From an uncultured Acidobacteriota bacterium (lineage in GTDB: Bacteria > Acidobacteriota > Thermoanaerobaculia > Multivoradales > UBA5704): a stretch of 64,000 bases of DNA. The notes beneath the pieces were generated by a model, which worked only from the letters and a program-made list of their open reading frames with translations, did no database searches and had not been told where the DNA came from. Below are positions 1 through 60,477 of this stretch, piece by piece. The stretch is from contig CAVYRF010000001.1 in assembly GCA_963770895.1 (NCBI GenBank), positions 1,152,001 through 1,216,000 on the forward strand, read 5' to 3'. The first letter of the stretch is position 1. Each line of letters starts with the position of its first letter. Made by a program: the position numbers and the translations under genes.

Positions 1-1
1 T

Positions 2-1435
2 GCCGAAGCCGCGGCGCTGGCGTCCCGCGCACCGTCCAACCTGCCGGCAGACGGGGCGTCGCCAGAGCAGCCGGCAGCGCCGCCGCCGCACCTGCCGCCG
101 CTGCCCATTGTGGCGCTGCGCGGTCGCCAGCGTTTCGTGCGCGGCAGCGAACGGCTGCACCTGCCCGATGCCGGGCCGAGGCCGGACCAGGCCGGCAGCG
201 GCGCCGGCTTGCTGCGAGGCGGTGCCTACCTGATCGCCGGCGCCGACCGCGGCGCGGGCGAGCCGTTGGCGCAGCACCTGGTGCGCCAGCTGGATGCGCG
301 GGTGGCGCTGGTGATCGCACCCGCCGCCGCCGCCGCGGCGCCGGCGGAGTCCCCAGCCGCCGGGCGCCTGCTGACGCTGGCCGGCGAGGTGGGCGACACC
401 CGCGTGCTGATCGTGCGCGGCGACCCCGCCGACCCGGCAGTGATGGCTGCGGCGGCAGCGCAGGCGGGCGCCCGGTTCGGTGCGCTGCACGGCGCCTTGT
501 GGAGCGGCGGCGTCGCCACCGGCCTGCTGCCCTGGAAGACGGCGGCAGGCCTGCACGCGGCGCTCGACCAGGTGGCGCGCGAGGCCGCGGCGCTGTGCGA
601 CGCCGCCGCGCCCGCGGCGCCGCGGTTCGTGGCATTGCTGGCCACGACCGCGGCGGTCACCGGTGGTGTCGGACTGCTGGAAGAGGCCGCCGCGGGTTCC
701 TACCTGGAAGCCTTCGCCAATCAGCGCGCCAGCGGCGACGGTGTCGCGGAAGCGGTGCCGCCTTGTCCGGTCGTCGCGGTGCATTGGGACCCCTACCAGT
801 GGGGCGGCTGGCTGGTGGCGGAGCTGGGCGCCGGCACCGCGGGGCTGTCGCCGCTGGAGATGGCGGCGATGGTGGCGGAGCAGGGCATCGCGCCCGAGCG
901 CAGCGCCGGCGCCCTGGGCCTGCTGCTGGCCGCGGCGCTGCCGGCGGCGGCGATCTCGGCGGGCGACCTGGCGCTGCTCGCCAGCGAAGCGGACAGCGTG
1001 ACCGCGGACGCCCTGCTCGCCGGCATGGCGGCGCCGGGGGTGCGCTCGCCGCGGCCCGACCTGGCGACGCCGTACGAGGCGCCGCGCGACGAGTTGGAGG
1101 AGAGCCTGGCGGCGCTGTGGCAGGAGCTCTTCGGCATCGAGCCGATCGGCCGCGACGACGTGTTCCTGGACCTGGGCGGCCATTCGCTGCTGGCGATCCA
1201 GATCGTCACCCAGGTGCGCCACCGGCTGCACGTCGACCTGCCGCTGACGGTGCTGTTCGAGGCGCCCACCGTGGCGCAGCTGGCGGCGGCGGTGCGGCGG
1301 GCGCGCGGCGAGGACGACCCGGCCGAGCTCGAGGCGCTGCTGGCGCAGGTCGAGGCGCTGTCGGCGGCGGAGGCCGCCGACAAGCTGGCGCAGCTGGACG
1401 TGCCGGCCGAGGTGCCGGCGGGGGTGGAAGCATGA
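2..1435 (+). CDS. 3' part of a PKS or hybrid PKS-NRPS: degenerate KR domain, carrier domain and C-terminal docking helix (partial; frame open from the window start)
   Basis: KR-like fold (YLIAGADRGAG, VAVHWDPYQW). Carrier with PYEAPRDELE...LGGHSLLA. Acidic tail ELEALLAQVEALSAAEA. No stop codon between position 2 and the GTG at 110. Confidence 0.88.
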   Translation, partial: AEAAALASRAPSNLPADGASPEQPAAPPPHLPPLPIVALRGRQRFVRGSERLHLPDAGPRPDQAGSGAGLLRGGAYLIAGADRGAGEPLAQHLVRQLDARVALVIAPAAAAAAPAESPAAGRLLTLAGEVGDTRVLIVRGDPADPAVMAAAAAQAGARFGALHGALWSGGVATGLLPWKTAAGLHAALDQVAREAAALCDAAAPAAPRFVALLATTAAVTGGVGLLEEAAAGSYLEAFANQRASGDGVAEAVPPCPVVAVHWDPYQWGGWLVAELGAGTAGLSPLEMAAMVAEQGIAPERSAGALGLLLAAALPAAAISAGDLALLASEADSVTADALLAGMAAPGVRSPRPDLATPYEAPRDELEESLAALWQELFGIEPIGRDDVFLDLGGHSLLAIQIVTQVRHRLHVDLPLTVLFEAPTVAQLAAAVRRARGEDDPAELEALLAQVEALSAAEAADKLAQLDVPAEVPAGVEA

Positions 1436-1476
1436 GCGGGCCTGGCGCCAGCCGGACCGCACGAGGTGGGCGATGA
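1432..1476 (+). other. Possible 14-codon bridging mini-ORF (MSGPGASRTARGGR)
   Basis: Its ATG (1432) overlaps the TGA of the upstream gene, and its TGA (1474-1476) overlaps the ATG of the next gene. Both junctions are ATGA overlaps. Confidence 0.35.
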
Positions 1477-3011
1477 GCGTCGCCGAACGCCTGGCGGCGC
1501 TGTCGCCCGAGCAGCGCGCGCTGCTCGACAAGCTGCGCGCCGCCTCCCCGGCGGCAACCGCGTCGCCCGCCTCGCAAGCGTCCCCGACGACCCCGCCAAC
1601 CGGCGCCGGCCAGCAGCAACCGCCGCCGGTGCGGCCGGTGTCGGGGCCGAGCGGGGTCGGCGACTGGCCGCTCAGCTTCGACCAGGAGCGGCTGTGGGGG
1701 CTGCACCAGCAGGTCGACCAGCTGGTGTCGTGGAACGTCGACGCCGGCAGCCGCTTCCGCGGCGGCGCGGTCGACCTGCGGGCGCTGCTGGGCGCGGTGC
1801 ACGCGCTGGTGCGGCGGCACGCGGCGTGGCGCACCACGTTCCCGCTGGTGGACGGCCGGCCGGTGCAGCGGGTGGCGGCGTTCATCCGACCGGCGGCGGC
1901 GGTGATCGACCTGGCGGCGCTGCCCGCCGCCCGCCGCGAGCAGGAGGCGCACACGGCGATCTGGCACCACACGCGCCAGCCGTTCGACCTGGCGCGCGGG
2001 CCGCTGCTGCGCCTGGCCCTGGTGCGGCTGGCGGCCGACGATCATCTCTGCCTGGTGACCCTGCACCACCTGGTGACCGACTGGATCAGCTTCCAGATCT
2101 TCTTCGGCGAGCTGCTGGCGCTCTACCGGCTGCAGCTTGCCGGCCGCGCCGTGCCGCTGCCGCCGCCGGAGGTGCAGTTTCCCGACTATGCGCTGTGGGA
2201 GCGCGACTGGCTGCGCGGCGACGTGCTGGCCGCCGAGCAGGACTTCTGGCGGCGCGAGCTGGCGGGGTTTCCGCTCGCCCTGGACCTGCCGGCGGCGCGG
2301 CCGCGGCCGGCGGTGCAGAGCCAGCGCGGCGGCATGGCGCGGATGGACGCCGGCGCCTCGCGCAGCGCCCGCCTGCGCGCCCTGGCTCGCGCCCAGGGGG
2401 CGACGCCGTTCATGGCGATGCTGGCGCTGCTCTACGCGCTGCTGTGGCGGCTGACCGGCCGCGAACGGCTGGTCGTCGGCTCCAACGGCGCCAACCGCCC
2501 GCGGCCCGAGCTGCAGGGCGTGGCCGGGTTCTTCCTCACCCAGATGCCGTTCGCCGCCGACGTCGGCGGCGATCCCACCTTCCGCGAGCTGCTGGCGCGC
2601 AGCCGGCGGGCGGCGCTGGCCGCCTACGCCCACCAGAACCTGCCGTTCAGCCTCCTGGTGGAGGCGCTGCCGGGCGCCCTCGCTGCCGCCGGCAACGGCC
2701 TGGAGCGCAATCCGGTGGTGCAGGTGATGCTGCTGGTGCTGACGTCGCCGCCGGCGGCGACGGTGCCCGGCGGGCCGACGTTCGAGCCGGTGCCGCTGTA
2801 CGACGGCAACTCGCGCTGGGACCTGATGTTCGGCATCTACGACGACGCCGACCGCGGCCTGGCCGGGGTGGTGGAGTTCAACGCCGACATCCTGGACGCG
2901 CCCCAGGTCGAAGGCTGGGTGGCGCTGCTGGTGCGCTTCATGGACGCGGTGACCGCCGACCCGGGACTGCGGCTGTCGCAGCTGCCGGCGGCTGGTGAGG
3001 TGGCGCGATGA
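1473..3011 (+). CDS. Stand-alone condensation-domain protein with variant active site HHLVTDWIS and an N-terminal docking helix
   Basis: PLSFDQERLW, RHAAWRTTF, PFDLARGPLLR, HHLVTDWIS (2064-2090), HQNLPF. GAGGTGG SD-like sequence before the ATG. No A or T domain. Confidence 0.92.
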   Translation: MSVAERLAALSPEQRALLDKLRAASPAATASPASQASPTTPPTGAGQQQPPPVRPVSGPSGVGDWPLSFDQERLWGLHQQVDQLVSWNVDAGSRFRGGAVDLRALLGAVHALVRRHAAWRTTFPLVDGRPVQRVAAFIRPAAAVIDLAALPAARREQEAHTAIWHHTRQPFDLARGPLLRLALVRLAADDHLCLVTLHHLVTDWISFQIFFGELLALYRLQLAGRAVPLPPPEVQFPDYALWERDWLRGDVLAAEQDFWRRELAGFPLALDLPAARPRPAVQSQRGGMARMDAGASRSARLRALARAQGATPFMAMLALLYALLWRLTGRERLVVGSNGANRPRPELQGVAGFFLTQMPFAADVGGDPTFRELLARSRRAALAAYAHQNLPFSLLVEALPGALAAAGNGLERNPVVQVMLLVLTSPPAATVPGGPTFEPVPLYDGNSRWDLMFGIYDDADRGLAGVVEFNADILDAPQVEGWVALLVRFMDAVTADPGLRLSQLPAAGEVAR

Positions 3012-6000
3012 GCGGCGTCGCCGGCCGCATCGCGGCGCTGTCGCCCGAGCAGCGCGCCCTGTTCGAAAAGCTCCGCCAGCAGCAGCAGCGCGCCGCGCGC
3101 CGCCTCGATCCGCCGCCCATCGCGCGGGTGAGCGGCGCGACGGGGCAGGGCGACTGGCCGCTGTCGCTCGACCAGGAACGCTTCTGGTTCATGGAGCAGC
3201 TGTACTCCAACCATGCCGGCCTCAACATCACCGCCGCCACGCGCCTGCGCGGGCGCCTCGCGGTGCCGCTGCTGGGCAAGGCGCTGGCCGCCGTGGTGCG
3301 CCGCCACGCGGCGTGGCGCACCACCTTCCCGGCGACGGCTGCGGGCGCGCCTTTGCAGCGCGTCGCGCCGCCCGCGGGCAGGGGTGCCGCCGGCGCCGGC
3401 GGTGGCGAGGTGCGGCTGGCGATGATCGACCTGTCGGCGCTGCCGGCGGCGGTGCACGCCGCGCAGGTGTCGCGCCTGGTGGACCAGGACACGGCGGCGC
3501 CGTTCGACCTGGCGCGCGGGCCGCTGGTGCGCGCCCACCTGCTGCGCCTGAGCGCGGTGGATCACGTGTGCGTGCTGACCGTCCACCACCTGGTGACCGA
3601 CTGGATCTCGTTCCAGATCGCCTGGAGCGAGCTGGCGGCGGCCTACCAGGCGCTGGCCGCCGGCCGGCCGGCGGCGCTGCCGGAGCCGCCGGTGCACTAT
3701 CCCGACTTCGCGGTGTGGCAGCGCGCCTGGCTGTCGGGGGAGGTGCTGGCCGAGCTGGAATCCTGGTGGCGCCAGACGCTTGCCGGCGTGCCGCTGGTGC
3801 TCGACCTGCCGCTGGACCGGCCGCGTCCGGCGGTGGCGCGCATGCGCGGCGGCCGGCGGCCGGTGGCGGCGTCGCCCGAGCTTTCCGAGGCGCTGCGGGC
3901 GCTGGGGCGGCGCCACGGCGCCACCCTGTTCATGACCGTGCTGGCGGCGACCGGCGTGCTGATCCATCGCGATTCCGGCCAGGAGCGGCTGGTCCTGGGC
4001 GCCAACAACGCCAACCGCAACCGCCCCGAGATCGAGCCGGTGCTGGGGTGCTTCCTCACCCAGGTGCCCTTCGTGATCGACCTCACCGGCGATCCGGCGT
4101 GGAGCGAGCTGCTGACCCGGGTGCGGCAGTCGGCCCTGGGCTCGTTCGGCCACCAGGACCTGCCGTTCGGCAAGCTGGTGGAGGCGGTGCGGCCGGAGCG
4201 CGACGCCAGCCGCCAGCCGGTGATCCAGACGCTGGTGCAGGTGCTCGACGCCCAGTATTCCAAGGTGGAGATGGCCGGCGTCAGCTTCGAGGCGGTGGAC
4301 TCCTACGACGGCAGGGCGCGCTACGACCTGATGTTGAGCCTGTACGACGCGCCGGGCGGCATCGCCGGGTCGCTGGAGTACGACGCCGACCTGTTCGACG
4401 CGGCGACCGTCGAAAGGATGGTGGAGCGCTTCCTGCTGCAAGCGGCGGCGGCCGCCGCCGATCCCGGCCTGCGCCTGTCGCAGCTGCCGGTGCTGTCGGC
4501 CGCGGCGCGCCATCAGGCTCTCCACGAATGGAACGACACGGAGTGGCCGGCGCCGCCCTGGACGGTGCCGGGACGCATCGCCGCGCAGGCGCTGGCGACG
4601 CCGGACGCCGCGGCGGTGGTCGCCCAGGAAGGCGGCCTGGTGCTCAGCTACGGCGAGTTGGCGCGGCGTGCCGGCGGCCTGGCCGGCGGGCTGCGCGCCG
4701 CGGGAGTCGGCACCGAATCCCGCGTCGCGCTGGCGCTCCAGCGCGGCGCCGACATCCCGCTGGCCATCCTGGCGGTGTGGCTGGCGGGGGGCGCCTACGT
4801 GCCGCTCGACCCTGACTCGCCGCGGGAGCGGCTGGCGCGGTTGCTGGCCGACGCAGCGCCGCGCCTGGTGGTGCATCGCGGACCGCTGCCGGTCGAGCTG
4901 CCGGCGGGGCTGGCCGGCTTCGATCTCGCCGGGTGGGAGCCAGGGGCGGCGGCACCGGGGGAGGCGCCGCCTGCCGCGATGACTCTTCTTGCCGCGGCGT
5001 CCCCCGCCGCCGGTGTGGCGAGCGCCGTGGGCGAGGCGGGCGAGGCGGGCGGCCCGCGCGCCGACCAGCTGGCCTACCTGCTCTACACCTCGGGCACCAC
5101 CGGCCTGCCCAAGGCCGCCATGATCGAGCACGGCGGGCTGGCGGCGATGCTGGCGGCGCTCGGAGAGCGGCTCGACCTGCGTGCCGGCGACCGGGTGCCG
5201 GCGATGGCGCCGTACGTCTTCGACGCGTCGCTGCTGGAGATGTTCCTGCCGCTGCTCGTCGGCGGCGTGGTCGAGGTGCTGAGCGCCGACCAGGTGCTGG
5301 ACCTGGATCGCTTGCTGGCGGCCATGGCGCGCGCCACCCAGGTGCTCACCGTGCCGGCGCAGATGCGCCGCCTGCCGCCCGACCTGGCGGAGCGCCAGCC
5401 GGGGCGCTTCGCCGGCCTGCGCGCGCTGTCGGTGGGCGGCGACGTGGTGACGCCGGATCTGCAAGCCCGGCTGCTGGCGACCTTCCCGGCGGCCGCGCTG
5501 CACGTGATGTACGGCCCGACCGAGATCTCGATCCTCTGCACCGGCTTCCACGTGCCGCGCTGGCGGCCGGCCGAGCGGTCGTTGATCGGCTGGCCGCTGC
5601 CGGGGGTCGAGGCGCTGGTGGTGGACCGCCGGCTGGCTGGAGGCCCCGATGCGCCGGTGGAGCAGGAGGCGGCAGCCGTGTCCGGCCCGCCGGCGGCGAA
5701 CCCCGCGCCGGCCGCACCACCAGCGCCGTTTGCGTTGGTGGCGCCAGGCGTGCCGGGCGAGCTGTGGATCGGCGGCCGCGGCGTGGGGCGCGGCTACTTC
5801 GGCCGCGACCAGCTGACCGCCCAGAAGTTCGTCGTCGCCGGCGGCCGGCGTTTCTACCGCACCGGCGACCTGGTGCGGCAGGTGCACGCCTGGGGCGGCG
5901 CCCTGGAGTTCCTGGCCCGCACCGACCAGCAGGTCAAGGTGCGCGGCGTGCGCGTCGAGCCCGGCGAGGTCGAGGCCGCGCTGCGCGCCCATCCGTCAGT

Positions 6001-9000
6001 GGCCGACGCGGTGGTGGCGGCGCGCCCGGCCGCCGACGGCGAAAACCTGCTGGTCGCCTATTGGGTGGCAGCCGCTCCGGTGGCGCCCGGCGCGGCGAGT
6101 GCGCCCGACCTGCTCACCCACCTGCGCCAGACGCTGCCGGCCGCCCTGGTGCCGGCGGTGCTGGTGCCGCTCGCCGAGCTGCCGCGCAACGCCGCGGGCA
6201 AGGTGGATCGCCAGCGGCTGCCCGTGCCGCCGTCGTTCGCGGCGGGCGGCGCAGCCGGCGCGGCTGGTGGCGATGGCGCCGTCGCGCGCGGCGCCGTCGA
6301 GGAGCTGGTGGCGGGCATCTGGTGCCAGGTGCTGGGGGTGGCGAGCGTGCCGGCGGCGGCGGACTTCTTCGCCCTGGGCGGCCATTCGCTGCTCGCCACC
6401 CAGGTGATCAGCCGCCTGCGCGCGGCCACCGGCGTCGAGCTGCCGGTGCGGGAAATGTTCCAGTCGCCGACCGTCGAAGCGCTGGCGCGGGCGGTCACCG
6501 CCGCCCTGGCCGCGGGCGGCGCCGGCAATGCCGGGGCGATGCCGCCGGCGATCGGCCGCGCCGCCCGCGACGGCGAGCTGCCGCTGTCGTTCGCCCAGGA
6601 ACGGCTCTGGTTCCTGGACCGCCTGGCGCCGGGCAGCGCCGCGTACCACATCCCGGTGGCGCTGCGCGCGCAGGGCGCCCTGTCGCTGCCGGCGATGGCG
6701 GCGGCTCTCGACGCGATGACGCAGCGCCACGAGGCCCTGCGCACGACCTTCGGTGCCAGCCGTGGCGCCGGCGGCGGCGCCGTCGCGGCCGGAGGCGCCG
6801 CGGCGCTGCGCGGCGGCCCGCGCCCGGTCCAGGTGGTGAACGCTCCTGTCGCCGCCGCCCCCCTGCCGGTGATCGACCTGGCAGCCCTGCCGCCGGCCGA
6901 GCGCGAAGCCGAAGCGCGGCGCCTGGTCGACGCCGAGGTGGCGCGCCCGTTCGACCTGGAGCGCGACGCGGTGCTGCGCCAGAGCGCCCTGCGGCTGGGC
7001 GCCGCCGACCACGTGCTGCTGCTGGTGGTCCACCACATCGCCGCCGACGGCTGGTCGATCGGCGTCATGGTGCGCGAGATCACCGCGCTCTACGCCGCCG
7101 CCGTCGCGGCACGGCCGGCGGCGCTGCCACCGCTGCCGGTGCAGTACGCGGACTTCGCGGTGTGGCAGCGGCAATGGCTGCGCGGCGAAGCGCTCGAACG
7201 GCAGCTCGCCTACTGGCGCCGCCGCCTTGCCGCCGCCCCCGCGCTCGACCTGCCGACCGACCGGCCGCGGCCGGCGGCGCAGAGCTTCCGCGGCGCCACC
7301 CGGATGCACGCGGTGCCCGCCGCCACCGCCGCCGCCCTGCGCGAAACGGCGCGGCGCGGCGATGCGACGCTCTTCATGCTGCTGCTGGCCGCCTTCCAGA
7401 CGCTGCTCGGCCGCTACGCCGGCCGCGACGACGTGGTGGTCGGCACGCCGATCGCCAACCGCACGCGCGCCGAGATCGAGCCGCTCATCGGCTTCTTCGT
7501 CAACACCCTGGTGCTGCGCGGCGATCTGGCCGGCGATCCGCCGTTCGGCGAGCTGCTGGCGCGCACCCGGCGCGCCGCGCTGGAAGCCTATTCGCACCAG
7601 GACCTGCCGTTCGAGCGCCTGGTCGAGGAGCTGCGGCCGGAGCGCCGCCTGGCGCACAACCCGCTGTTCCAGGTGATGTTCGCGGTGCAGAACACGCCGC
7701 TCGGCGCGGTCGAGCTGCCGGGCGTCGCCTTCGCCCCGGTCGAGCTGACGTTCCCCGCCACGCGCTTCGACCTGGAGCTGTTCTTCACCGAGGTGGACGG
7801 CGCCCTGGCGGTGCAGCTCACCTACAGCACCGACCTCTTCGATCGCGCCACCATGCTGCGCCTGCTGGGCCACCTCGACCGCCTGCTCGCGGCGCTGCCG
7901 GCCGCCGCGCCCCAGCGGCTGTCGCAGCTCGCCCTGCTGGCGCCCGAGGAGCGCCAGCAGCTGGCCCGCGAGTGGAACGACACCGCGGCTCAGCTGCCCG
8001 CCGCGGGCGTCGCGGCGCGCTTCGCCCACCAGGCCCGCCGCCGCCCCGACGCCGTGGCGCTGTCGTGGGAGGACGGCGAGATCACCTACGCCGAGCTGGC
8101 GCGGCGCGCCGCCGCGGTGGCGGCCGCGCTGCGCAACGCCGGGATCGGCGCCGAAGCCAGGGTGGCGCTCGCGGCGCAGCGTGGGCCGGCCCTGGTGGCC
8201 GGCATCCTCGGCATCCTGGCGGTGGGCGGCGCCTACGTGCCGCTCGATCCGTCGTATCCAACCGAGCGGCTGGCGTTCATGCTCGACGACTCGCAGGCGC
8301 AGGCCGTGCTGGGCGACCCGGAGCTGACCGAAGGCCTGCCCGCCGGCCTGCCGCGGCTGGATCTGACGGCGGCCTTCGCTGGCGGCGGGCAGCCGCAAGC
8401 GGCGTTCGCGCCGCGCGGCGTCGACCTGGACGGGCTCGCCTACGTGATGTACACGTCGGGTTCGACCGGCCGCCCCAAGGGAGTCGGTGTCACCCATCGC
8501 GGCATTCTGCGCCTGGTCGCGGGCGGCGGGTGGCGGGAGCCGCATCCTGGCTCCGACGGCGCCGTCGATGTCGCAAATGGCGCCCATGCCGCCGACGCCG
8601 CCGATTTCGCCAACGCCGCCGGCCGTGCGGAGTGCGCCGACGACCGCATGCCGGGCGCTTTTGTGGAGCTCGGCCCCGGCCAGGTGTTTCTGCAACTGGC
8701 GCCGGTTTCCTTTGACGCATCGACGCTGGAACTGTGGGCGCCGTTGCTGCACGGCGGGCGGCTGGCGATCTTCCCGCCGCGGCGCCCGGCGCTGGCCGAC
8801 CTGGCGCAGGCGGTGGCGCGCTGGGGCGTCAGCTCGCTGTGGCTGACCGCCGGGCTGTTCCACCAAATGGTGGACCACGAGCTGGCATCGCTTGCCGGCT
8901 TGACCCAGCTGCTGGCGGGCGGCGACGTGCTGTCGCCGGCGCACGTGCGGCGGGCGCTCGCCGCGCTGCCTGCGATCACCCTGGTCAACGGCTACGGCCC

Positions 9001-11536
9001 CACCGAGAGCACCACCTTTGCCTGCTGCCACCGCATGCCCGGCGGCAGCCAGGTCGCCGCCGGCAGCGTGCCGCTGGGCAGGCCGATCGGCAACACCCGT
9101 CTCCTGCTGCTCGGCCGCTACGGCGAAGAGCTGCCGGCCGGTGCCTGGGGTGAGCTGTGGATCGGCGGCGACGGCCTGGCCCGCGGTTACGTTGGTCGGC
9201 CCGACCTGACCGCCGCCAGCTTCGCCCCCGACCCCGTGGGCGGTGTGCCAGGGGCGCGCCTCTATCGCACCGGCGACGTGGCACGCTGGCGGGCGGACGG
9301 CACGATCGAGTTCCGCGGCCGGCGTGACGGCCAGGTCAAGGTGCGCGGCTACCGCGTCGAGCTGGGCGAGATCGAAAGCGCCCTGCGCCGCCACCCGCGC
9401 GTCGAGCAGGCGGCGGTCGTGGCCCTGCGCCACCAGGCGCCGGCCGCCGCCGCGGCGGCAGCGGCGGTGCCCCAGCCGCCCGACGGCCAGCCCGCGGTCG
9501 ATGGGGGAGAGCTGCGGCTGGTGGCCTACGTCGTGCCGGCGCCGGTTGCGCCCGCCGCCGTCGGCGCGCCGGACCCGGCGACAGCAGGAGCGGCGGGCGG
9601 CGTTGGCGCGGCAGCGGCAGCGAGTGCAGGAGCGGCCGGCAGCGTAGCCGCCAGTGCGGTAGCGGGAGTGGGAGCAGAAGGCGCCGGCGACTCAGGCGCC
9701 GACGCGGCATCAGGAGCAGGCGCGGGGATCGTCGAGCAGTGGCGCGAGCTGTACGAGCAGACCTATGCGCGCGGCCTGCCGGCCGAGGCGGGCGGCGACG
9801 CCGCGTTCAACGTCCAGGGATGGAACAGCAGCTATACCGGCGAGCCGATCCCGGCCGCCGAGATGCGCGAGTGGCTGGACGGGATCAGCGGCCGGCTGCT
9901 GGCCCTGCCGCACCGGCGGGTCCTGGAGGTGGGCTGCGGCACCGGCCTGCTGCTCTTCCGCGTCGCGCCGCGGGCGGAAAGCTACCGCGGCACCGACTTT
10001 TCGGCGGTGGCGCTGGCGCAGGTGGCGGCCGAAGTGCAGCGGCGCGGCATCGCCGGCGTCCAGCTGGAGCAGCGGCAGGCCAGCGACTGGAGCGGCGTCG
10101 CCCCCGGCAGCGTCGACCTGGTGGTGCTCAACTCCGTGGTGCAGTACTTCCCCAGCGCCGACTACCTGGTGGCAGCGCTCGCCGGCGCCGCGGCGGCGGT
10201 GGCGCCGGGCGGTGCGATCTTCGTCGGCGACGTGCGCAGCCTGCCGCTGTTGCAGGCCTTCCACACGTCGGTCGAGCTGCACGCCGCAGCGGGCACGGTG
10301 TCCGCCGCGGAGCTGGCGCGCCGCGTGCGCCGCGGCATCGCCGGCGAACAGGAGCTGTGCGTCGATCCCGACCTGTTCCGCCAGCTGGCCGCCAGGCTGC
10401 CGGCGGCCACTGCCGTTCAGGTCCAGCTGCATCGCGGCCGCCACGCCAACGAGCTGACGCGGTTCCGCTACGACGTGATCCTGCGGGTCGGCGCCGCGGT
10501 GCCGCCGGCACCGCCGCCAGCACTGCCGCGGCTCGATTGGCGCGCCGAAAAGTTGACGCTGGGCGAGCTGGAGCGGCGCCTGCGCCTGCGGCTCGCCCCA
10601 GGCGAGAGCGCGCGCGACGGCGCGCCGGTGCTCACCGTCTGTGGAGTCCCCAACGCCCGGCTCGCCGCCGAGGCGGTGGCGCTCGAACTGATGGCAGACC
10701 CGGGCACGGTGGCGACGGCGAGCGCGGCCGATCTGCGCGCCGAAGTCGCGCGCCGTCTGGCGGTGCTTGCGGCGGACCCGGCGACGGCGCCGGTCGACCC
10801 GGAAGACCTGTGGGCGTTGGGCGACCGGCTGGGCTGCCAGGCCGAGGTCGGCTGGCCGGCGGACGGCGGCGCCGGGGGCACCCTGGAGGTGCGCTTCCGG
10901 TCCACCGCGCCGGCCGCGGCCCACGCGGCCCCCATGGCCGATACGCCCGCCGCCGCCGCGGCACCCGCCGAGCCTTTACGCTGGGGTGCGTTCACCAACG
11001 ATCCGCTGGCGATCGTCGAACAGCGGCGGCTGGCCGGCGAGCTGCGGCGCCACCTGGACGCGACGCTGCCCGAATACATGGTGCCCGCCGCGTTCGTCGT
11101 GCTGGACGCGCTGCCGCTCACCGCCAACGGCAAGGTCGACCAGGCGGCGCTGCCGCCGCCGGACGCGCCCGGCCAGCAGGCGGAGCGCTGGGTGGCGCCG
11201 GCGACGCCGCTCGAGCGGCTGCTGGCCGAGGTGACCGTCGAGCTGCTGGGGATCGAGCGCGCCGGGCTGCGCGACAACTTCTTCGCCTTGGGTGGCCACT
11301 CGCTGCTGGCCACCCAGCTGGTGTCCCGCCTCACCCAGGAGCACGGCCTGGCGGTGACCTTGCGCATGGTGTTCGACGCCGCCGACCTGGGCGACCTGGC
11401 CGACCGCATCGTCGAGCAGGAGCTGGCGGGCGCCGACGACGAGCTGCTGCAAGCTGCCCTGGGCGAGCTCGACGGCCTGGGCGCGGACGACCTGGAGCTG
11501 GCCGCGCTGGGCGACGCCGCGGAGGCCGAACGATGA
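3008..11536 (+). CDS. Two-module NRPS: C(HHLVTDWIS)-A-T-C-A(N-MT interrupted, Val-type)-T
   Basis: Two full A-motif sets and two GGHSL carriers. MT motifs GWNSSYTG, VLEVGCGTG and LNSVVQYFP lie between A8 and A9. The second A code, read by eye, is DALWLGGTFK (Val-type). Confidence 0.95.
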   Translation: MSGVAGRIAALSPEQRALFEKLRQQQQRAARRLDPPPIARVSGATGQGDWPLSLDQERFWFMEQLYSNHAGLNITAATRLRGRLAVPLLGKALAAVVRRHAAWRTTFPATAAGAPLQRVAPPAGRGAAGAGGGEVRLAMIDLSALPAAVHAAQVSRLVDQDTAAPFDLARGPLVRAHLLRLSAVDHVCVLTVHHLVTDWISFQIAWSELAAAYQALAAGRPAALPEPPVHYPDFAVWQRAWLSGEVLAELESWWRQTLAGVPLVLDLPLDRPRPAVARMRGGRRPVAASPELSEALRALGRRHGATLFMTVLAATGVLIHRDSGQERLVLGANNANRNRPEIEPVLGCFLTQVPFVIDLTGDPAWSELLTRVRQSALGSFGHQDLPFGKLVEAVRPERDASRQPVIQTLVQVLDAQYSKVEMAGVSFEAVDSYDGRARYDLMLSLYDAPGGIAGSLEYDADLFDAATVERMVERFLLQAAAAAADPGLRLSQLPVLSAAARHQALHEWNDTEWPAPPWTVPGRIAAQALATPDAAAVVAQEGGLVLSYGELARRAGGLAGGLRAAGVGTESRVALALQRGADIPLAILAVWLAGGAYVPLDPDSPRERLARLLADAAPRLVVHRGPLPVELPAGLAGFDLAGWEPGAAAPGEAPPAAMTLLAAASPAAGVASAVGEAGEAGGPRADQLAYLLYTSGTTGLPKAAMIEHGGLAAMLAALGERLDLRAGDRVPAMAPYVFDASLLEMFLPLLVGGVVEVLSADQVLDLDRLLAAMARATQVLTVPAQMRRLPPDLAERQPGRFAGLRALSVGGDVVTPDLQARLLATFPAAALHVMYGPTEISILCTGFHVPRWRPAERSLIGWPLPGVEALVVDRRLAGGPDAPVEQEAAAVSGPPAANPAPAAPPAPFALVAPGVPGELWIGGRGVGRGYFGRDQLTAQKFVVAGGRRFYRTGDLVRQVHAWGGALEFLARTDQQVKVRGVRVEPGEVEAALRAHPSVADAVVAARPAADGENLLVAYWVAAAPVAPGAASAPDLLTHLRQTLPAALVPAVLVPLAELPRNAAGKVDRQRLPVPPSFAAGGAAGAAGGDGAVARGAVEELVAGIWCQVLGVASVPAAADFFALGGHSLLATQVISRLRAATGVELPVREMFQSPTVEALARAVTAALAAGGAGNAGAMPPAIGRAARDGELPLSFAQERLWFLDRLAPGSAAYHIPVALRAQGALSLPAMAAALDAMTQRHEALRTTFGASRGAGGGAVAAGGAAALRGGPRPVQVVNAPVAAAPLPVIDLAALPPAEREAEARRLVDAEVARPFDLERDAVLRQSALRLGAADHVLLLVVHHIAADGWSIGVMVREITALYAAAVAARPAALPPLPVQYADFAVWQRQWLRGEALERQLAYWRRRLAAAPALDLPTDRPRPAAQSFRGATRMHAVPAATAAALRETARRGDATLFMLLLAAFQTLLGRYAGRDDVVVGTPIANRTRAEIEPLIGFFVNTLVLRGDLAGDPPFGELLARTRRAALEAYSHQDLPFERLVEELRPERRLAHNPLFQVMFAVQNTPLGAVELPGVAFAPVELTFPATRFDLELFFTEVDGALAVQLTYSTDLFDRATMLRLLGHLDRLLAALPAAAPQRLSQLALLAPEERQQLAREWNDTAAQLPAAGVAARFAHQARRRPDAVALSWEDGEITYAELARRAAAVAAALRNAGIGAEARVALAAQRGPALVAGILGILAVGGAYVPLDPSYPTERLAFMLDDSQAQAVLGDPELTEGLPAGLPRLDLTAAFAGGGQPQAAFAPRGVDLDGLAYVMYTSGSTGRPKGVGVTHRGILRLVAGGGWREPHPGSDGAVDVANGAHAADAADFANAAGRAECADDRMPGAFVELGPGQVFLQLAPVSFDASTLELWAPLLHGGRLAIFPPRRPALADLAQAVARWGVSSLWLTAGLFHQMVDHELASLAGLTQLLAGGDVLSPAHVRRALAALPAITLVNGYGPTESTTFACCHRMPGGSQVAAGSVPLGRPIGNTRLLLLGRYGEELPAGAWGELWIGGDGLARGYVGRPDLTAASFAPDPVGGVPGARLYRTGDVARWRADGTIEFRGRRDGQVKVRGYRVELGEIESALRRHPRVEQAAVVALRHQAPAAAAAAAAVPQPPDGQPAVDGGELRLVAYVVPAPVAPAAVGAPDPATAGAAGGVGAAAAASAGAAGSVAASAVAGVGAEGAGDSGADAASGAGAGIVEQWRELYEQTYARGLPAEAGGDAAFNVQGWNSSYTGEPIPAAEMREWLDGISGRLLALPHRRVLEVGCGTGLLLFRVAPRAESYRGTDFSAVALAQVAAEVQRRGIAGVQLEQRQASDWSGVAPGSVDLVVLNSVVQYFPSADYLVAALAGAAAAVAPGGAIFVGDVRSLPLLQAFHTSVELHAAAGTVSAAELARRVRRGIAGEQELCVDPDLFRQLAARLPAATAVQVQLHRGRHANELTRFRYDVILRVGAAVPPAPPPALPRLDWRAEKLTLGELERRLRLRLAPGESARDGAPVLTVCGVPNARLAAEAVALELMADPGTVATASAADLRAEVARRLAVLAADPATAPVDPEDLWALGDRLGCQAEVGWPADGGAGGTLEVRFRSTAPAAAHAAPMADTPAAAAAPAEPLRWGAFTNDPLAIVEQRRLAGELRRHLDATLPEYMVPAAFVVLDALPLTANGKVDQAALPPPDAPGQQAERWVAPATPLERLLAEVTVELLGIERAGLRDNFFALGGHSLLATQLVSRLTQEHGLAVTLRMVFDAADLGDLADRIVEQELAGADDELLQAALGELDGLGADDLELAALGDAAEAER

Positions 11537-14500
11537 GTCCCGGAGCGCCGGCGGCGGACCGCCTGGCAGGGCTCTCACGCGAGCAGCGGGCGCTGCTGTT
11601 CGAACAGGTGCGCAAGCGCAAGGAGGCCGCCGCGGCGCCGTCCGGGCGCATCCCGCGCCGTCCGGCGAGCATGGCCGCGGTGCCCGCCTCGTTCGCCCAG
11701 GAGCGGCTCTGGTTCATGGACCGCCTGGCGCCCGGCAACCCCGCCTTCAATATCTCCTATGCCCTGCGCCTGCGAGGCCGCTCGTCGCCGGCGGTGGTGA
11801 CGGCGGTGCTCAACGAGGTGGTGCGCCGCCACGAGGCGCTGCGCACCACCTTTGCCGAGCGCGGCGGCCAGCCGCTGCAGGTGATCGCGCCGCCCGCGGC
11901 CGCCGGCCTGCGGCTGCCGGTGATCGACCTGGCGGCGCTGCCCGCCGGCAGGCGCGCCGCCGCCGTGCGCGGCCTGGCCGAGCGCGAGTCGCAATGGCGC
12001 TTCCGCCTGGAGAGCGGGCCGCTGTTGCGCACCCTGCTGCTGCGCCTGGCCCCCGACGAGCACGTGCTGATGCTCGTCATGCATCACATCATCTCCGACG
12101 GCTGGTCGATGGGAGTGCTGGCGCGCGAGATCACCGCGGTCTGGCGCGTGATCGCCGCCGCCGGCGCCGCGCCGCTGCCGCCGCTGCCCATCCAGTACGC
12201 CGACTTCGCGCTCTGGCAGCGCTCCTGGCTGAGCGGCGCCGAGCTGGAACGGCAGGTGGACTACTGGCGCCAGCGCCTGGCCGGCGCCGCCGACTCGCTC
12301 GACCTGCCGGCGGACCGGCCGCGGCCGGCGGCGCAGACCTACCGCGGGGCGCAGCTGCGCGGCGTGCTGGCGGCGGGCCTGATGGCGCGGCTGCGGCAGC
12401 TCGCGCGGCAGCACGAAGCCAGCCCCTACATGGCGCTGCTGGCGGGGTTCCAGGCGCTGCTGGGCCGGTTGAGCGGCCAGGGCGACCTGAGCGTCGGCTC
12501 GCCGATCGCCAATCGCAACCGCGCCGAGCTCGAGCCGCTCATCGGCTTCTTCGTCAACACCCTGGTGATGCGCGGCGACCTGGCGGGCGACCCGCCGTTC
12601 GACGACCTCCTGGCGCGCACCCGCAAGTCGGCGCTGGAGGCGTTCGCCCACCAGGACCTGCCGTTCGAGCGCCTGGTCGTCGAGCTACGGCCGGAGCGCC
12701 GGCTGTCGGTGACGCCGCTCTTTCAGGTCGTCTGCGCCCTGCAGAACGCGCCTTTGGGCGGCATGGACCTGCCCGGCCTGACGGTGGCCCCGGTCCCGCT
12801 CGAGGTGACGACCGCGCAGTTCGACCTGGAGCTGCACGGCTGGGAGCAGGACGACGGGTCGCTCCTGGCGATGGTCTACTACAGCACCGAGCTGTTCGAC
12901 GCCGCCACCGCGCGCCGCTTCGTGGGCCAGCTGGACACCCTGCTCGATGCGGCCACGGACGATCCCGGCCTGCGGCTGACCGCGCTGCCGCTGCTCACCG
13001 CCGCCGAGCGCCACCAGCTGCTGCGCGAATGGAGCCAGGGCGGCCCGTCGCCGGCGCTGGGTGCGCCGGACCTGGACATCGCCACGCGGGTTTTGGCGCG
13101 CGCCGCGCAGACCCCCGATGCCGTGGCCGTTGCCTGGAGCGGCGGCGAGCTGCGCTACGGCGAGCTGGCCGCCCGCGCCACGCAGCTTGCCGGCGACCTC
13201 GCTTCGCTTGGCGTCGCGGCGGACACGCTGGTCGGCGTCTGCGCCGGCCGCTCGCCCGAGCTGGTCATCGGCGCGCTGACGGTGCTGCTGGCGGGCGGCG
13301 CCTACCTGCCGCTCGATCCGTCCTATCCGCGCCAGCGCCTGGCCGCCATCGTCCGCCAGAGCGGCATCCGCATCCTGCTGGCGGCCGGCACGGCCGGTGT
13401 TGCGGGTGGGCCGGCCGATTGGGCGGCCCCCGAAGTACGCGTGCTGCCGATCGCGCGCCCGGCGCCCCCGGCCGCCGGCGACCCGGCAGCGCGCGCCGCC
13501 GACCCCCGCCAGCTCGCCTACGTGATCTACACGTCGGGTTCGACCGGGCAGCCCAAGGGGGTGGCGATCTCGCGGCACGGCCTGGCGGCGATGGTGGCCT
13601 GGCACCTGGACGCCTATGCGATCAGCGGGCAGGACCGCTCGGCGCTGCTTGCCTCGCCGGCCTTCGACGCCTCGGTCTGGGAGATGTGGCCCTACCTGGC
13701 GGCCGGCGCCAGCCTGCATATCCCCGACGACGAAGTGCGCCTGATGCCGGACCGCCTGCTCGCCTGGCTGGCGGCTCAGGCCATCACCCTGGCCCACCCC
13801 ACCACGCCGATGGCCGAGCCGCTGCTGGCGCAGCTGGACGCGACCGGCGCGCCGCCAGGTCTGCGGCTGCGGGCGATGCTCACCGGCGGCGACCGTCTGC
13901 AACGCCGGCCGCGCCAGGGGCTCGGCTTCGAGCTCTTCAATCACTACGGCCCCACCGAATCGAGCGTCGTCGCGACCGCGGCCCGCGTCGAGCCGCCGCC
14001 TGAGAGCAGCGGGGTTGGCGTGCGCCCGCCGTCGATCGGCCGCCCCATCGCCGGCAGCCGCGCCTACGTGGTCGACGCCCGCCTGGCGCCGGCGGCCGCC
14101 CTGGTGCCGGGCGAGCTGCTGCTGGGCGGCGAAGGCCTGGCGCGCGGTTACGCCGCGGCGCCCGACCAGACGGCACAGCGGTTCGTCCCCGACCCCTTCG
14201 CCGCGGCCCCCGGCGGCCAGCGCCTGTACCGCACCGGCGACTTGGTGCGCTGGCTGCCCGACGGCACCCTGGAGTTTCTCGGCCGCCTCGACAGCCAGGT
14301 CAAGCTCCGCGGCTTCCGCATCGAGCTGGGCGAGATCGGCAGCACCCTCCAGCGCCATCCAGCCGTCGCCGCCGCGGCCGTGGGCCTGGTGGATACCGGC
14401 GGCGGCCCGCGCCTCGCCGCCTGGGTCGTGCCGCGCACGCAAGCGGAGCTGGCCGCCGCCGGCTGGCAGCCGGCGGGTGACGACCACGTGGCCCAATGGC

Positions 14501-17742: not shown

Positions 17743-17871
17743 ATCGCTGCGCGGTTCGGCAAGTCCCGCCTGCCGCCCCTTCCGGCACTTCCATAGTGCC
17801 GCCCCCACAGCCGCAGAATTCAACCTTCCTTCGTGGGCGGAGGCCGGGAGCCGAATGCAAGGACCGGGAGG

Positions 17872-36157: not shown

Positions 36158-36158
36158 G

Positions 36159-36440
36159 TCACGGCCTCCAGCGCTCCACGTCCCGCCAGAAGTCGGCGAG
36201 GAGCTGTTCCGGCGTGATAAAGGTGTAGGGGGTTTGCTGGTTGCCGGCATGGCGATGGTCACCCTTGCCCGCCTCGTTGTCGTACCGCAGGATACAGGTC
36301 CCGTCGACCACCAGCGCGAGTCGATACTTGAAAGGATGCGCGCTTCCCGGGACGGGCGCTGGCAGGCGCCACACGACCAGTTCCACGAAAGCATCTCCGG
36401 CAATGATCCGCCGTTCCCGGAACAGGGGATCGGCCTTCAT
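36159..36440 (-). CDS. DUF6516-family (TumE-like) putative toxin, 93 aa
   Basis: Family-like motifs W.LP.PVPGS.H.FKYRL and RYDNEAGKGDHRH. It is paired with the downstream HTH gene. Confidence 0.82.
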   Translation of the reverse strand: MKADPLFRERRIIAGDAFVELVVWRLPAPVPGSAHPFKYRLALVVDGTCILRYDNEAGKGDHRHAGNQQTPYTFITPEQLLADFWRDVERWRP

Positions 36441-36476: not shown

Positions 36477-36634
36477 CGGCCGCGGATCTGATCCGCGACC
36501 ATCTACGCAACTGGCGTGGCAGGCTCGGAAACCGGCGAGCCAGAATCAGAGGTAGCGGTCCGCTCCCGAGCTTCGAGGTCGCGGTCCAGGCTCGCCAGGC
36601 GATAGACGACCCAGCCCCCGACGATCGAGACGGG

Positions 36635-38367: not shown

Positions 38368-60477
<22,110 letters not shown>

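Follow-up and report, generated by a model that had tools for sequence, protein, structure and literature searches.

A putative orphan NRPS/PKS locus with broken or rewired parts in an uncultured Thermoanaerobaculia bacterium

Chain-releasing terminal condensation domains (Cterm) are known in bacteria from the NRPSs of Photorhabdus and Xenorhabdus. The Condensation family of Pfam also spans E domains, and T-E/C-A is the usual junction between modules of which the first epimerizes. In fungi, according to PMC10510592, a C-family domain termed CT replaces the TE at the end of the last module; the same review describes the icosalide NRPS, in which tandem C domains occur and a hydroxy-acyl nucleophile is used. 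Modules lacking an A domain are described, in PMC8748450 and PMC7539972, for legonmycin (LgnD, C1-T1-C2-A2-T2-TE) and for WS9326A (module 7, C-T-C-A-T), where the A-less carriers are charged from a separate A-T protein by means of a type II thioesterase shuttle.

The DNA analysed here (the window) is a 64-kb chromosomal stretch from an uncultured, soil-type Thermoanaerobaculia (Acidobacteriota) bacterium. It carries two giant co-directional thiotemplate lines on the + strand, with a conserved core gene between them. The + strand proteins of these lines are six in number: a PKS tail cut at its 5′ end (gene A′), a free-standing C protein (gene B) and four megasynthases (genes C, D, E, and F). 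All domain coordinates given below for these genes refer to the + strand.

Domain content, C-domain types and relatives

Our own profile scan of the six proteins gave 16 C-family domains, 15 carriers, one KS, one AT, one TE, and 11 full A domains, eight of them uninterrupted and three interrupted by an MT, plus one vestigial A fragment. Matches to the Pfam families Condensation, AMP-binding, PP-binding, ketoacyl-synt, Acyl_transf_1, Methyltransf, and Thioesterase ranged from 1e-9 down to 0. The signatures of modular type I NRPSs were present, with HHxxxD in 15 of the 16 C domains, the carrier Ser kept in all 15 carriers, and none of the 11 A domains lacking the A motifs or the Lys of A10. Paralogous domains within the window were 28–68% identical at the protein level. 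The initial annotation had counted ten full A domains; the three MT-interrupted ones that it reported were found again, and the total has to be corrected to 11 with these three included, a figure to which its own residue lists also sum. Its other structural observations, namely a stand-alone C, two gene-terminal C domains, two A-less modules, dead KRs in two PKS parts, and a single TE, were recovered at the positions given below, and the non-canonical modules that it pointed out are real and more numerous than it had stated; it had missed the absent carrier between the first A of gene E and the KS, the lost second His in the first C of gene E, the lost AT Ser, and the A6-A8 remnant in one A-less module. 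A tRNA scan of the window found none.

The absence of E domains, likewise noted earlier, agrees with a contest between a C profile and an E profile: 16 of 16 C-family domains in the window scored 397–635 bits on the C profile and 56–119 bits on the E profile, and three control E domains scored 620–690 bits on the E profile and about 100 bits on the C profile. None of the 16 qualified as E or dual E/C in this contest, and a six-frame scan gave nothing better; dual E/C domains have an additional His motif, for which the sequences were inspected by eye only. The possibility that the gene-terminal C domains are hidden E domains was ruled out by the profile contest together with the lists of PDB matches. 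For the terminal C of gene E, the PDB matches were led by C domains of the ordinary kind (Txo1, 2e-59), and at 1e-10 the list contained no E domain, those of TycA and GrsA being absent; for gene B the best matches were likewise C domains, and the TycA and GrsA E domains matched weakly (1e-11 to 7e-14).

A species-level genome scan gave 60% identity at best, to a Thermoanaerobaculia MAG. The proteins returned by protein searches had no name or only a generic one and came for the most part from metagenomes or MAGs, with some from sequenced isolates, the closest being 40–61% identical per module and 73.5% for the last C of gene E. Since the rankings of the region search were summed multi-domain scores, relatives were re-scored locally. 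No product name was attached to the relatives in the protein searches or in a cluster look-up of ten of them, and a literature search found no natural product from Thermoanaerobaculia named in the titles or abstracts listed. The pathway had been described as probably undescribed at the outset, with which these results are consistent. Because no natural product of this lineage is named in these listings, the pair of megasynthases, full-length and frame-intact, is a concrete target for heterologous expression. Two related, non-identical loci were located in Thermoanaerobaculia MAGs, L001 (DATKFK010000017.1) and L002 (DASWME010000127.1); the comparison covers 6.8 kb of the former and 21.5 kb of the latter.

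Line 1 and the first module of gene E

Line 1 (1–34,635) is a hybrid PKS-NRPS, and its part in the window lacks E, TE, and R domains. Its order is ...KR0-ACP / free C / C-A-T-C-A(nMT)-T / C-A(nMT)-T-C / C0-A-(carrier deleted)-KS-AT0-KR0-T-C-A-T-C-A(nMT)-T-C, and its start lies upstream of the window. Gene A′ (2..1435, cut at its 5′ end by the window) contains a KR-like region (221–739; Pfam KR 9.7e-10) and a carrier (1103–1294; PP-binding 2.8e-16), and it reads as the tail of a PKS module. In place of the GxGxxG and catalytic Tyr of a KR, the KR-like region has a degenerate NADPH motif (AGADRGAG) and, when compared with the KR of MlnE in a weak alignment (E = 0.0014), a Glu at the Tyr position. 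Both related loci have a homologous tail; that of L001 is 66% identical over 185 aa, and that of L002 belongs to a complete gene encoding KS-AT-KR-ACP. By analogy with L002, the tail would belong to a single mid-line KS-AT-KR-ACP module rather than to a lipid-tail synthase.

Gene B (1473..3011) encodes a free-standing condensation protein of 512 aa with the His motif HHLVTDW (Pfam Condensation 5.3e-67), which scored 433 bits on the C profile versus 81 bits on the E profile and shares 50% identity with the C domain that opens gene C. An equivalent free-standing C lies between the PKS tail and the NRPS in L001 (58% identity, motif HHLATDW). Gene C (3008..11536), the start codon of which overlaps the stop codon of gene B (ATGA), encodes C(HHLVTDW)-A-T-C-A(MT)-T; it is joined by another ATGA overlap to gene D (11533..17742), which encodes C-A(MT)-T-C. 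The terminal C of gene D (16444–17739) has the motif HHIVVDG and is of the ordinary elongation type, its best matches being internal C domains of relatives at 48–51% identity. Gene E (17872..34635) encodes C0-A-(no carrier)-KS-AT0-KR-like-T-C-A-T-C-A(MT)-T-C; it starts at the ATG at 17872, a GTG at 17833 being also open, and its database copy has 5587 aa.

In each of the three interrupted A domains, Pfam Methyltransf_12/25/11 matches follow AMP-binding and precede the latter half of AMP-binding_C, placing the MT in the C-terminal part of the A domain, and all three MT copies carry an intact SAM-binding motif, VLE(V/I)GCGTG. The interrupted A domain of gene C matched the solved A-M-A structure 5WMM, which we take to be TioS of thiocoraline, in three stretches (E = 5.9e-152). 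N-methylation, proposed in the initial annotation, is thus backed by the SAM motif in all three MTs, by their position inside the A domains, and by the 5WMM match; the methylated atom would be nitrogen rather than O or S.

Specificity codes were obtained by scripted extraction of the code positions, using anchor positions that we assumed, and the extraction reproduced the calls made previously by eye. The A codes were DALLSGMILK (unassigned) and DALWLGGTFK (Val type, N-methylated) in gene C, DAWHLGHVVK (Leu-like, N-methylated) in gene D, and DACFWGLVDK (unassigned), DILQLGVIWK (Gly), and DAFFLGGTFK (Val/Ile, N-methylated) in gene E. The Gly, Ser, Val, and Gln-like codes of the two lines agree at 8–10 of 10 positions with the codes that we take to be canonical; for five codes we know of no match that can be named. 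Line 1 would then build an all-L chain, ...(ketide)-X-NMeVal-NMe(Leu-like)-X-Gly-NMeVal/Ile.

At the head of gene E, the C domain (17914..19284) has HPIVGDG in place of HHxxxDG. The second His, absent here, was missing in only 10 of 728 C-family domains from the window and 119 relatives, and this C, one of a tandem pair, is probably dead. At the A-to-KS junction (20794..20874), 27 residues separate the A10 region from the KS and there is no carrier domain. When compared with P0049, P0031, and P0112 (all C-A-T-KS-AT-T-...), gene E lacked some 86 residues in one clean gap that coincides with their carrier domain; the carrier of module 1 has been lost by a clean in-frame deletion. The KS of relatives follows a carrier in 22 of 26 cases and stands at the protein start in the other 4, with none directly after an A domain, and in a region search for another A-KS fusion no match covered more than 70% of the junction except the window's own protein.

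The KS and AT of gene E lie at 20875..23325. The KS has the motifs TACSTS, EAHGSAT, and NIGH, with the Cys-His-His triad intact when aligned with the KS domains of 26 relatives. In the AT, GHGLG and HALHC stand where a cis-AT has the Ser of GHSxG and HAFHS/YASH; all 23 relatives having an AT keep the Ser (GHS, GYS, or GFS) and 21 have HAFHS. Identity to relatives was 58–66% for the KS and 49–61% for the AT, and the AT/KS identity ratio (0.79–0.93 for the window versus 0.99–1.10 among relatives) indicates that the AT diverges faster than the KS. The KR-like spacer that follows (23557..25032) is recognisable by its N-terminal prefix alone (PF21394 4e-8; NF047870 'KR prefix' 4e-19). Neither a Pfam KR match nor a PDB sequence match was found for it at E ≤ 0.01, and GRRAGLL occupies the site at which the Rossmann motif, GxGxxG, would be expected. 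The remaining carrier of the module is at 25078–25269. P0049, P0031, and P0112 have the same N-terminal order as gene E, with KS-AT 54–61% identical over about 900 residues, but they keep the A-to-KS carrier and the AT Ser, both lacking in gene E, whereas the 470-residue KR-like region is absent from them (KS-to-T gap of 516–561 residues versus 976 in gene E).

These features may be accommodated by a scheme in which the A domain of module 1 charges the one remaining carrier (25078–25269), the terminal C of gene D forms the peptide bond in trans in place of the HP-mutated C of gene E, and KS-AT0-KR0 is carried along as an inert insert, which would mean that the ancestral C2 extension was lost. 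We give this scheme an even chance of being correct. We know of no precedent in which the carrier loaded by an A domain lies about 1,400 residues further down the protein, and this counts against the scheme. Moreover, the KS may still work, since it has kept its triad and 58–66% identity, whereas an inert passenger should drift.

Chain termini, intervening genes and line 2

The terminal C of gene E (33259..34587; motif HHVAADW) falls into a sharply separate clade of C domains that stand at chain ends. Its identity is 73.5% with the final domain of P0039 and 62% with the final domain of P0261, and P0377, P0401, and P0322 scored 523–612 bits versus 295 bits for the next best of 150 representatives. 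In all six members of the clade the domain is C-terminal, and clade-specific motifs are common to them; the five members with A domains, gene E included, are all N-methylating synthetases, and P0377 has the architecture C-T-Cterm. Relatives in this clade with a named organism came from Acidobacteriota- or Gemmatimonadota-type MAGs. A foreign graft, considered for the lower GC of this domain (0.696), was ruled out, its GC3 (0.919) being like the rest. The chain of line 1 would be off-loaded by this domain, the clade of which was found only at protein C-termini. A literature search for bacterial examples of release by a terminal C found none.

Genes E and F are 3.7 kb apart. Between them, a low-GC stretch (35.0–36.6 kb, GC 0.52–0.66) contains a small ORF on the − strand (35816..36403) with a GC3 of only 0.73, a C-terminal winged-helix domain (PF25212 8.2e-29), and weak Csa3/CasR-like matches. 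It is followed, also on the − strand, by an Xaa-Pro dipeptidase-like amidohydrolase (36816..38150; Pfam Amidohydro_1 6.6e-53), which scored 417 bits on NF051886, under the cut-off of 500. Its best 120 relatives include 118 that are 75–97% identical, and all of the matches in this range that bear an organism name are from Thermoanaerobaculia or Acidobacteriota; this wide conservation marks it as a core gene lying between the two blocks. On the other side of gene F, a 467-aa ORF (60569–61972) gave only 'hypothetical protein' clusters in atlas and family searches.

Line 2 (38,368–60,477) would be a self-contained seven-module NRPS with an acyl start on its own N-terminal ACP. Its single gene F (38368..60477) encodes ACP-C(starter type, HHIVADF)-A-T-C-A-T-C-a0-T-C-T-C-A-T-C-A-T-C-A-T-TE. 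The N-terminal ACP-type carrier, which together with the first C occupies 38524..40326, has the motif LGLDSL and is 22–35% identical to the other 14 carriers. The first C falls into a 10-member clade (support 0.957), all members of which are the first C of their protein, standing after nothing, T, A, or A-T; a start with ACP-C-A-T was also seen in P0301, P0307, P0266, and P0270. With an ACP-type carrier and a starter-type C at its start, gene F looks like a separate lipo-initiated line. Neither an FAAL nor an acyl-CoA ligase gene was found in the window. The lipopeptide character suggested in the initial annotation would apply to line 2, on account of this carrier and this C, and not to line 1, the PKS tail of which does not appear to be a lipid-tail synthase.

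The two A-less modules of gene F (45919..49536) consist of C-(A6-A8 remnant, 47335–47511)-T at 45919–47817 and C-T at 47878–49536. The boundaries of the A6-A8 remnant are the same in P0054 and P0293, and C-T modules were present in 4 of the first 119 relatives. The partners of a type II thioesterase shuttle, that is an A-T didomain gene and a type II thioesterase gene, were both absent from the 64 kb. The A-less carriers would have to receive their amino acids in trans or from an A domain nearby, and the ACP-loading enzyme and any trans partners of line 2 would be encoded outside the window. The A codes of gene F were DILQLGVIWK (Gly), DVINVGRVSK (?), DVWHMSLVDK (Ser), DSMFTGQVVK (?), and DAWQAGFIDK (Gln-like). 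The predicted product, acyl-Gly-X-?-?-Ser-X-Gln-like, would be released by the TE (59614–60357), which has GWSVG and GDH and is the only one found.

It was also observed that the last C of line 1 has no acceptor in the window and the ACP of line 2 no loading enzyme, and that these two loose ends could fit each other.

Alternative readings and comparison with known systems

As a whole, the locus is best explained as two orphan lines, a reading towards which we lean with some reserve. An assembly chimera would make the A-KS, T-C/C-A, and E/F junctions artefacts of joined NRPS repeats, which are a known trap for assemblers, and a second NRPS protein, 56% identical, is recorded. However, GC3 is uniform across all genes and domains (0.82–0.99 in every scanning window of the six genes), no junction breaks the reading frame, the starts and stops of genes are coupled, the paralogous domains are too distant at the identities given above for confusion at the read level, and the synteny of the free C is reproduced in the independent MAG L001. 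Domain homology runs in one frame over 5,587 codons in gene E and 7,369 in gene F, and genes C–F contain no in-frame stop in 17,867 codons versus 4–97 in the other five frames. Given the uniform GC3, the lack of in-frame stops, and the ATGA overlaps at B/C and C/D, there is no sign of a chimera, and we regard one as highly improbable. A decaying and largely silent cluster, of which at least line 1 makes no product now, would turn the broken C, the lost carrier, the dead AT, the dead KRs, and the vestigial A into steps of pseudogenisation. Five or more domains are indeed disabled or missing (C0, the carrier, AT0, two KR0, and the vestigial A), and the faster divergence of the AT relative to the KS points the same way. 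Spurious ORFs of 3,014 and 3,391 aa occur in other frames; with these and a GC content of 76%, at which long open frames arise without selection, the open frames are weak evidence of selection. Against decay, there are no frameshifts, the stop counts differ between frames as given above, all other catalytic motifs are intact, and only one module carries damage that is peculiar to this genome. The degenerate KR tail, the HHxxxDW type of C, and the free-standing C are kept in the related loci L001 and L002 (the free C in the former), and the boundaries of the vestigial A recur in two relatives; conserved in this way, they represent inherited architecture and not fresh damage. Decay of this extent therefore seems to us quite unlikely.

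Two further alternatives concern module 1 of gene E and the link between the lines. Module 1 of gene E might be a working amino-acid-plus-C2 hybrid that uses its single carrier twice: the A domain would load the distal carrier, the C would add the upstream peptide, the chain would move back to the KS Cys, and a trans-acting acyltransferase would reload malonate for extension by the KS to a beta-keto-gamma-amino unit, left unreduced by the dead KR. The intact triad of the KS, which is the best conserved part of the module, is in keeping with such use, and so are the order C-A-T-KS-AT-T without a KR match in P0049, P0031, and P0112, which follows the same unreduced logic, and the retained fold of the AT, which at 49–61% identity could be a docking platform. 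No trans-AT gene lies within the 64 kb, however, we know of no hybrid module in which back-transfer is combined with a carrier that serves twice, and the joint loss of the AT Ser and the carrier is more simply taken as loss of the extension step; we consider double use unlikely and retain the inert insert as the working scheme. The two lines might, on the other hand, be one, giving a single, partly N-methylated product some 13 residues long that the only TE would release. In that case the line 1 peptide would be joined by the terminal C of gene E to an amino or hydroxy nucleophile on the starter unit of the gene F ACP, and the starter-type C of gene F would pass the whole chain on. Line 1 does end in T-C without TE or R, gene F begins with a carrier lacking a loading enzyme in the window, and the genes are co-directional and close together. 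A C/T module split over two proteins is conceivable, given the A-less C-T modules in 4 of the first 119 relatives and the C-T-Cterm order of P0377, and the tandem C domains of icosalide are stated to use a hydroxy-acyl nucleophile in PMC10510592. Yet the first C of gene F clusters with C domains that come first in their proteins, a kind that accepts simple acyl or aminoacyl donors, and the gene F carrier is of the acyl type (LGLDSL). In addition, none of the four relatives starting with ACP-C-A-T was seen with a Cterm partner, the five Cterm relatives also end their proteins in Cterm, and genes E and F are separated by a low-GC stretch and by a core gene that is strongly conserved. A merged line is thus doubtful. 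A long shot is that the six-member clade of the terminal C is a new off-loading or hand-over subtype, that the two blocks together produce a single branched lipo(depsi)peptide about 13 residues long, and that the module without carrier and AT still works; the terminal C would then pass the N-methylated chain of line 1 to the unit on the line 2 ACP, and the A domain of module 1 would charge the carrier about 1,400 residues downstream, with the C of the preceding protein acting in trans. Two separate lines remain our preferred reading.

Since no relative with a known product was found, we take the locus to be a genuine, though rather ordinary, orphan cluster of the antibiotic type, in which a few broken or rewired parts stand out. 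The predicted products, multiply N-methylated peptides and an acylated heptapeptide, would be unusual for bacteria outside actinomycetes and myxobacteria. Three parts amount to natural experiments, namely a module that has kept A and KS without carrier and AT, a family of A-less modules in which a stump of the A domain is conserved, and a clade of C domains restricted to the ends of proteins. If they are shown to work, each of them could be of use to NRPS engineering; should none prove functional, the locus would merely add to the many thousands of orphan clusters.

With respect to known systems, the interrupted A domains have the MT in the C-terminal part of the A domain as in 5WMM, to which the sequences are only distantly related, and the methylated amino acids in the window are predicted. 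As in fungal CT domains, a C-family domain stands in place of a TE at the end of gene E, but the fungal motif given in PMC10510592 is SHxxxDx, versus HH(V/I)xxD(G/W) and motifs of its own in the gene E clade. Icosalide, as described in the same review, has two C domains in a row at one module, resembling the ACP/B/C, D/E, and E/F junctions here; its second C is a starter C adding a second fatty acid, whereas the tandem C domains of the window are split over proteins. Carriers without an A domain of their own between C domains are common to gene F and, according to PMC8748450 and PMC7539972, legonmycin LgnD and WS9326A, the difference being that gene F has two such modules in a row, one of them with an A6-A8 remnant. 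Of the two related loci, L002 has KS-AT-KR-ACP / C-A-T-C-A(MT)-T / C-A(MT)... at about 50% identity to the window, without a free C, and its methylating A domain has a Val-type code, DALWLGGTFK, identical to that of the window, while the other A codes of L001 and L002 differ from the window's. L001 has, as in the window, a KR-like-ACP tail, a free-standing C, and then C-A... at 58–66% identity, and the HHxxxDW motif is common to the window, L001, and L002.

Organization of the synthetase genes

By ORF listing and codon-position GC, six forward-strand genes were singled out in the window, which has a GC content of 69–78%. Gene A' (2–1435, 5' end cut) encodes KR-like-ACP, gene B (1473–3011) a single C domain, gene C (3008–11536) C-A-T-C-A(MT)-T, gene D (11533–17742) C-A(MT)-T-C, gene E (17872 or 17833 to 34635) C-A-KS-AT-KR-like-T-C-A-T-C-A(MT)-T-C, and gene F (38368–60477) T-C-A-T-C-A-T-C-(A stump)-T-C-T-C-A-T-C-A-T-C-A-T-TE. 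ATGA overlaps were present at B/C and C/D. Domains were mapped with Pfam on whole proteins and overlapping 600-residue pieces, and with profiles from the window's own domains, giving 16 C-family domains, 11 full A domains (3 MT-interrupted), 15 carriers, and one each of KS, AT and TE. This map bore out the domain list of the initial annotation, except that it had counted ten A domains. In gene A', the KR tyrosine position was aligned with Glu in a weak alignment (E = 0.0014). The motif (R/L)(I/L)A(A/G)LS(P/R)EQRALL... opens B, C and D (1473–1540, 3008–3075 and 11533–11620) and occurs also in L001 (DATKFK010000017.1) and L002 (DASWME010000127.1), two related loci in Thermoanaerobaculia MAGs. 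From its sequence, it looks like a docking element; with the same element, B and C could compete for one upstream partner.

Specificity codes were read out by script using an anchor rule; the code positions and several motif names (E4, GHSxG, HAFHS, Rossmann, N-MT motifs) are general background that was applied to tool-made alignments. The read-out reproduced the specificities previously called by eye. In line 1 (genes A' to E), N-methylated residues were predicted for the MT-interrupted A domains of gene C (DALWLGGTFK, Val), gene D (DAWHLGHVVK, Leu-like) and gene E (DAFFLGGTFK, Val/Ile), and Gly for the second A of gene E (DILQLGVIWK). In line 2 (gene F), A 1 (DILQLGVIWK), A 3 (DVWHMSLVDK) and A 5 (DAWQAGFIDK) were predicted to select Gly, Ser and a Gln-like residue, respectively. 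No residue was assignable to the first A domains of genes C (DALLSGMILK) and E (DACFWGLVDK) or to A 2 (DVINVGRVSK) and A 4 (DSMFTGQVVK) of gene F.

Pfam Condensation hits include E domains, and the standard junction of one NRPS protein with the next is T-E|C-A; therefore, the extra C domains were put to a direct C-versus-E test using 728 C-family domains (712 from 119 large relatives and the 16 of the window). The E-type motif EGHGR was found in 10 of the 728, nine of them in a T-x-C position. These 10 provided the E profile, and 150 ordinary T-C-A domains the C profile. Each of the 16 window domains scored 397–635 bits on the C profile and 56–119 on the E profile, while three control E domains scored approximately 100 and 620–690 bits, respectively. 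In PDB searches with B and the last domain of gene E, Txo1/Txo2 C domains came out on top (2e-59 to 8e-73), with E domains weak or absent. These results rule out the extra C domains being E domains, and none of the 16 is one. All-L peptides are thus predicted, barring the action of another enzyme.

First module and terminal C domain of gene E

Four defects occur together in the first module of gene E, in the C domain, carrier, AT and KR-like region. The C domain reads HPIVGDG, the second His being absent in only 10 of the 728 domains. The A domain keeps the visible core motifs A3, A5, A7, A8 and A10 and has 27 residues between it and the KS; when aligned with the C-A-T-KS-AT-T relatives P0049, P0031 and P0112, gene E showed a clean gap of approximately 86 residues exactly over their carrier. 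Among 26 KS domains of relatives, 22 follow a carrier at 18–32 residues, 4 stand at the protein start, and none follows an A domain. The AT has GHGLG and HALHC, the Ser being kept in all 23 AT-bearing relatives, and its AT/KS identity ratio was 0.79–0.93 versus 0.99–1.10 among relatives, showing somewhat faster divergence than that of the KS. The 470-residue region ahead of the remaining carrier was recognised only as a KR prefix and had no Pfam KR or PDB match. The final C of gene D (HHIVVDG) resembles an ordinary elongation domain by sequence, with 48–51% identity to C domains inside related proteins.

In the simplest working model, the extra C of gene D would stand in, in trans, for the dead first C of gene E, the first A of gene E would charge the single carrier remaining in its module, and the KS and the broken AT and KR would be inert, an ancestral amino-acid-plus-C2 step having turned into a plain amino-acid step. 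A trans-AT might instead still feed this module, in keeping with the intact Cys-His-His of its KS. We consider partial decay of the cluster improbable; the clustering of the defects in one module speaks for it, as do the open frames being a weak sign of selection at this GC, since ORFs of >3,000 aa exist in other frames. Two such spurious frames, of 3,391 codons (+, over 24825–35000) and 3,014 codons (−, 16459–25503), overlap real genes. GC3 stayed at 0.82–0.99 across all 150-codon windows of the six genes and at 0.92–0.98 across all domains of gene E, and genes C–F had no in-frame stops in 17,867 codons, compared with 4–97 in the other five frames. Repeat-driven misassembly is very unlikely, since the domains, only 28–68% identical, are too unlike for it.

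HHxxxDW was found in only 3 of the 728 domains, namely B, the first C of gene C and the last C of gene E (33259–34587); it occurs also at homologous positions in L001 (the free C and the next C) and L002. The three share one 20-member clade (support 0.965) of the 728-domain tree. No other part of the locus has relatives nearly as close as those of the last C of gene E, which is 73.5% and 62% identical to the last domains of the relatives P0039 and P0261, respectively. An exhaustive HMMER search yielded 150 representatives, of which P0377, P0401 and P0322 scored 523–612 bits and the next best C 295. In all five relatives the domain ends the protein, and the six sequences have common motifs absent from ordinary C domains. 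Four of the five contain A domains, each with at least one MT-interrupted A, and the fifth is C-T followed by the terminal C. We read this domain from its sequence as a probable dedicated chain-ending C, for which cyclisation, transfer to a free nucleophile and hand-over to a carrier are all possible.

Gene F and the number of assembly lines

The N-terminal carrier of gene F is of the acyl-carrier type (LGLDSL), 22–35% identical to the other 14 carriers, and the first C belongs to a ten-member clade; each member comes first among the C domains of its protein, preceded by nothing, T, A or A-T. An ACP with a first-position C is the usual start of lipo-initiated lines, and four relatives have the same start. 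The TE has GxSxG and GDH; a GADGADGADGAD run lies within it (59950–60050). Ala/Pro-rich low-complexity inserts of approximately 50 residues were observed in a C domain (42900–43050, residues about 1480–1530) and the first A (41300–41450), so that Pfam matches break in two; inserts of this kind are typical of genomes with very high GC. Outside the window, P0270 is an ACP-first NRPS of 7,563 aa, sharing approximately 56% identity with portions of gene F. The host genome may carry at least one further ACP-first line like gene F.

Between E and F, a low-GC stretch (35.0–36.6 kb; 0.52–0.66 versus approximately 0.76 elsewhere) showed no convincing coding signal over 35000–36600 (GC3 0.53–0.73), apart from a 195-aa winged-helix ORF (35816–36403, −) with a C-terminal HVO_A0114/Csa3-like domain. 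It could be either a regulator or what is left of inserted DNA. The stretch is followed by an amidohydrolase gene (36816–38150, −), its closest model being Xaa-Pro dipeptidase NF051886 (417 bits, under the cut-off of 500). Among its best 120 relatives, 118 were 75–97% identical, the named ones all being Thermoanaerobaculia or Acidobacteriota, which also places the host, and its conservation extends very widely over metagenome bins of Thermoanaerobaculia. Judged on this conservation, it is a core rather than a tailoring gene. A 97%-identical copy on a 10-kb metagenome contig indicates that samples from elsewhere have included a closely related strain. Because of this core gene between the blocks, the starter-type start of gene F and its own TE, two separate lines are favoured. 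A single merged line running from E to F is considered unlikely; in its favour, line 1 has no visible acceptor or release enzyme besides its last C, and the ACP of gene F has no visible loader.

Directly downstream of gene F, a 467-aa ORF (60569–61972, −) had a strong coding signal (GC3 0.90) and no Pfam, NCBIfam or PADLOC match, with only "hypothetical protein" look-alike clusters in the Atlas. An Amidohydro_2 family protein (62221–63180, +; 5.9e-39) and the C-terminal part of a carboxylesterase-family protein running off the window (63253–63999, −; 2.2e-25) had no evident link to the synthetases.

Comparison with related and known systems

Modules 3 and 4 of gene F have no A domain, module 3 retaining a stump of approximately 90 residues that spans A6 up to the beginning of A8. 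The stump boundaries are identical in the relatives P0054 and P0293, indicating an inherited module type, not an assembly accident; C-T modules occurred in 4 of the first 119 relatives. Previously described A-less cassettes either receive their charge from a stand-alone A-T protein through a type II thioesterase (PMC8748450) or rely on A domains acting in trans (PMC7539972). No separate A-T or trans-A gene and no type II thioesterase gene was found within the 64-kb window.

With protein B as query, 19 loci were recovered from species-representative genomes; the best lie in two Thermoanaerobaculia MAGs (60% and 50% identity), followed by Longimicrobiaceae, Gemmatimonadales, Myxococcales and others (28–43%). 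L001 has the same order as the window (tail, free C, C-A). L002 shows A-T-C-A-T, KS-AT-KR-ACP, C-A-T-C-A(MT)-T and C-A(MT)..., an order suggesting by analogy what may precede the window upstream. Of the comparable A codes, a single one is in common with the window, so L001 and L002 would make related but different peptides. Among 197 large relatives, the best identity per module was 40–61%, except for the terminal C. No relative found by protein searches carried a product name, and no product of this lineage was named in the titles or abstracts listed by the literature searches. On these searches, the locus appears to be an orphan example of a familiar type of system, wired unusually in places.
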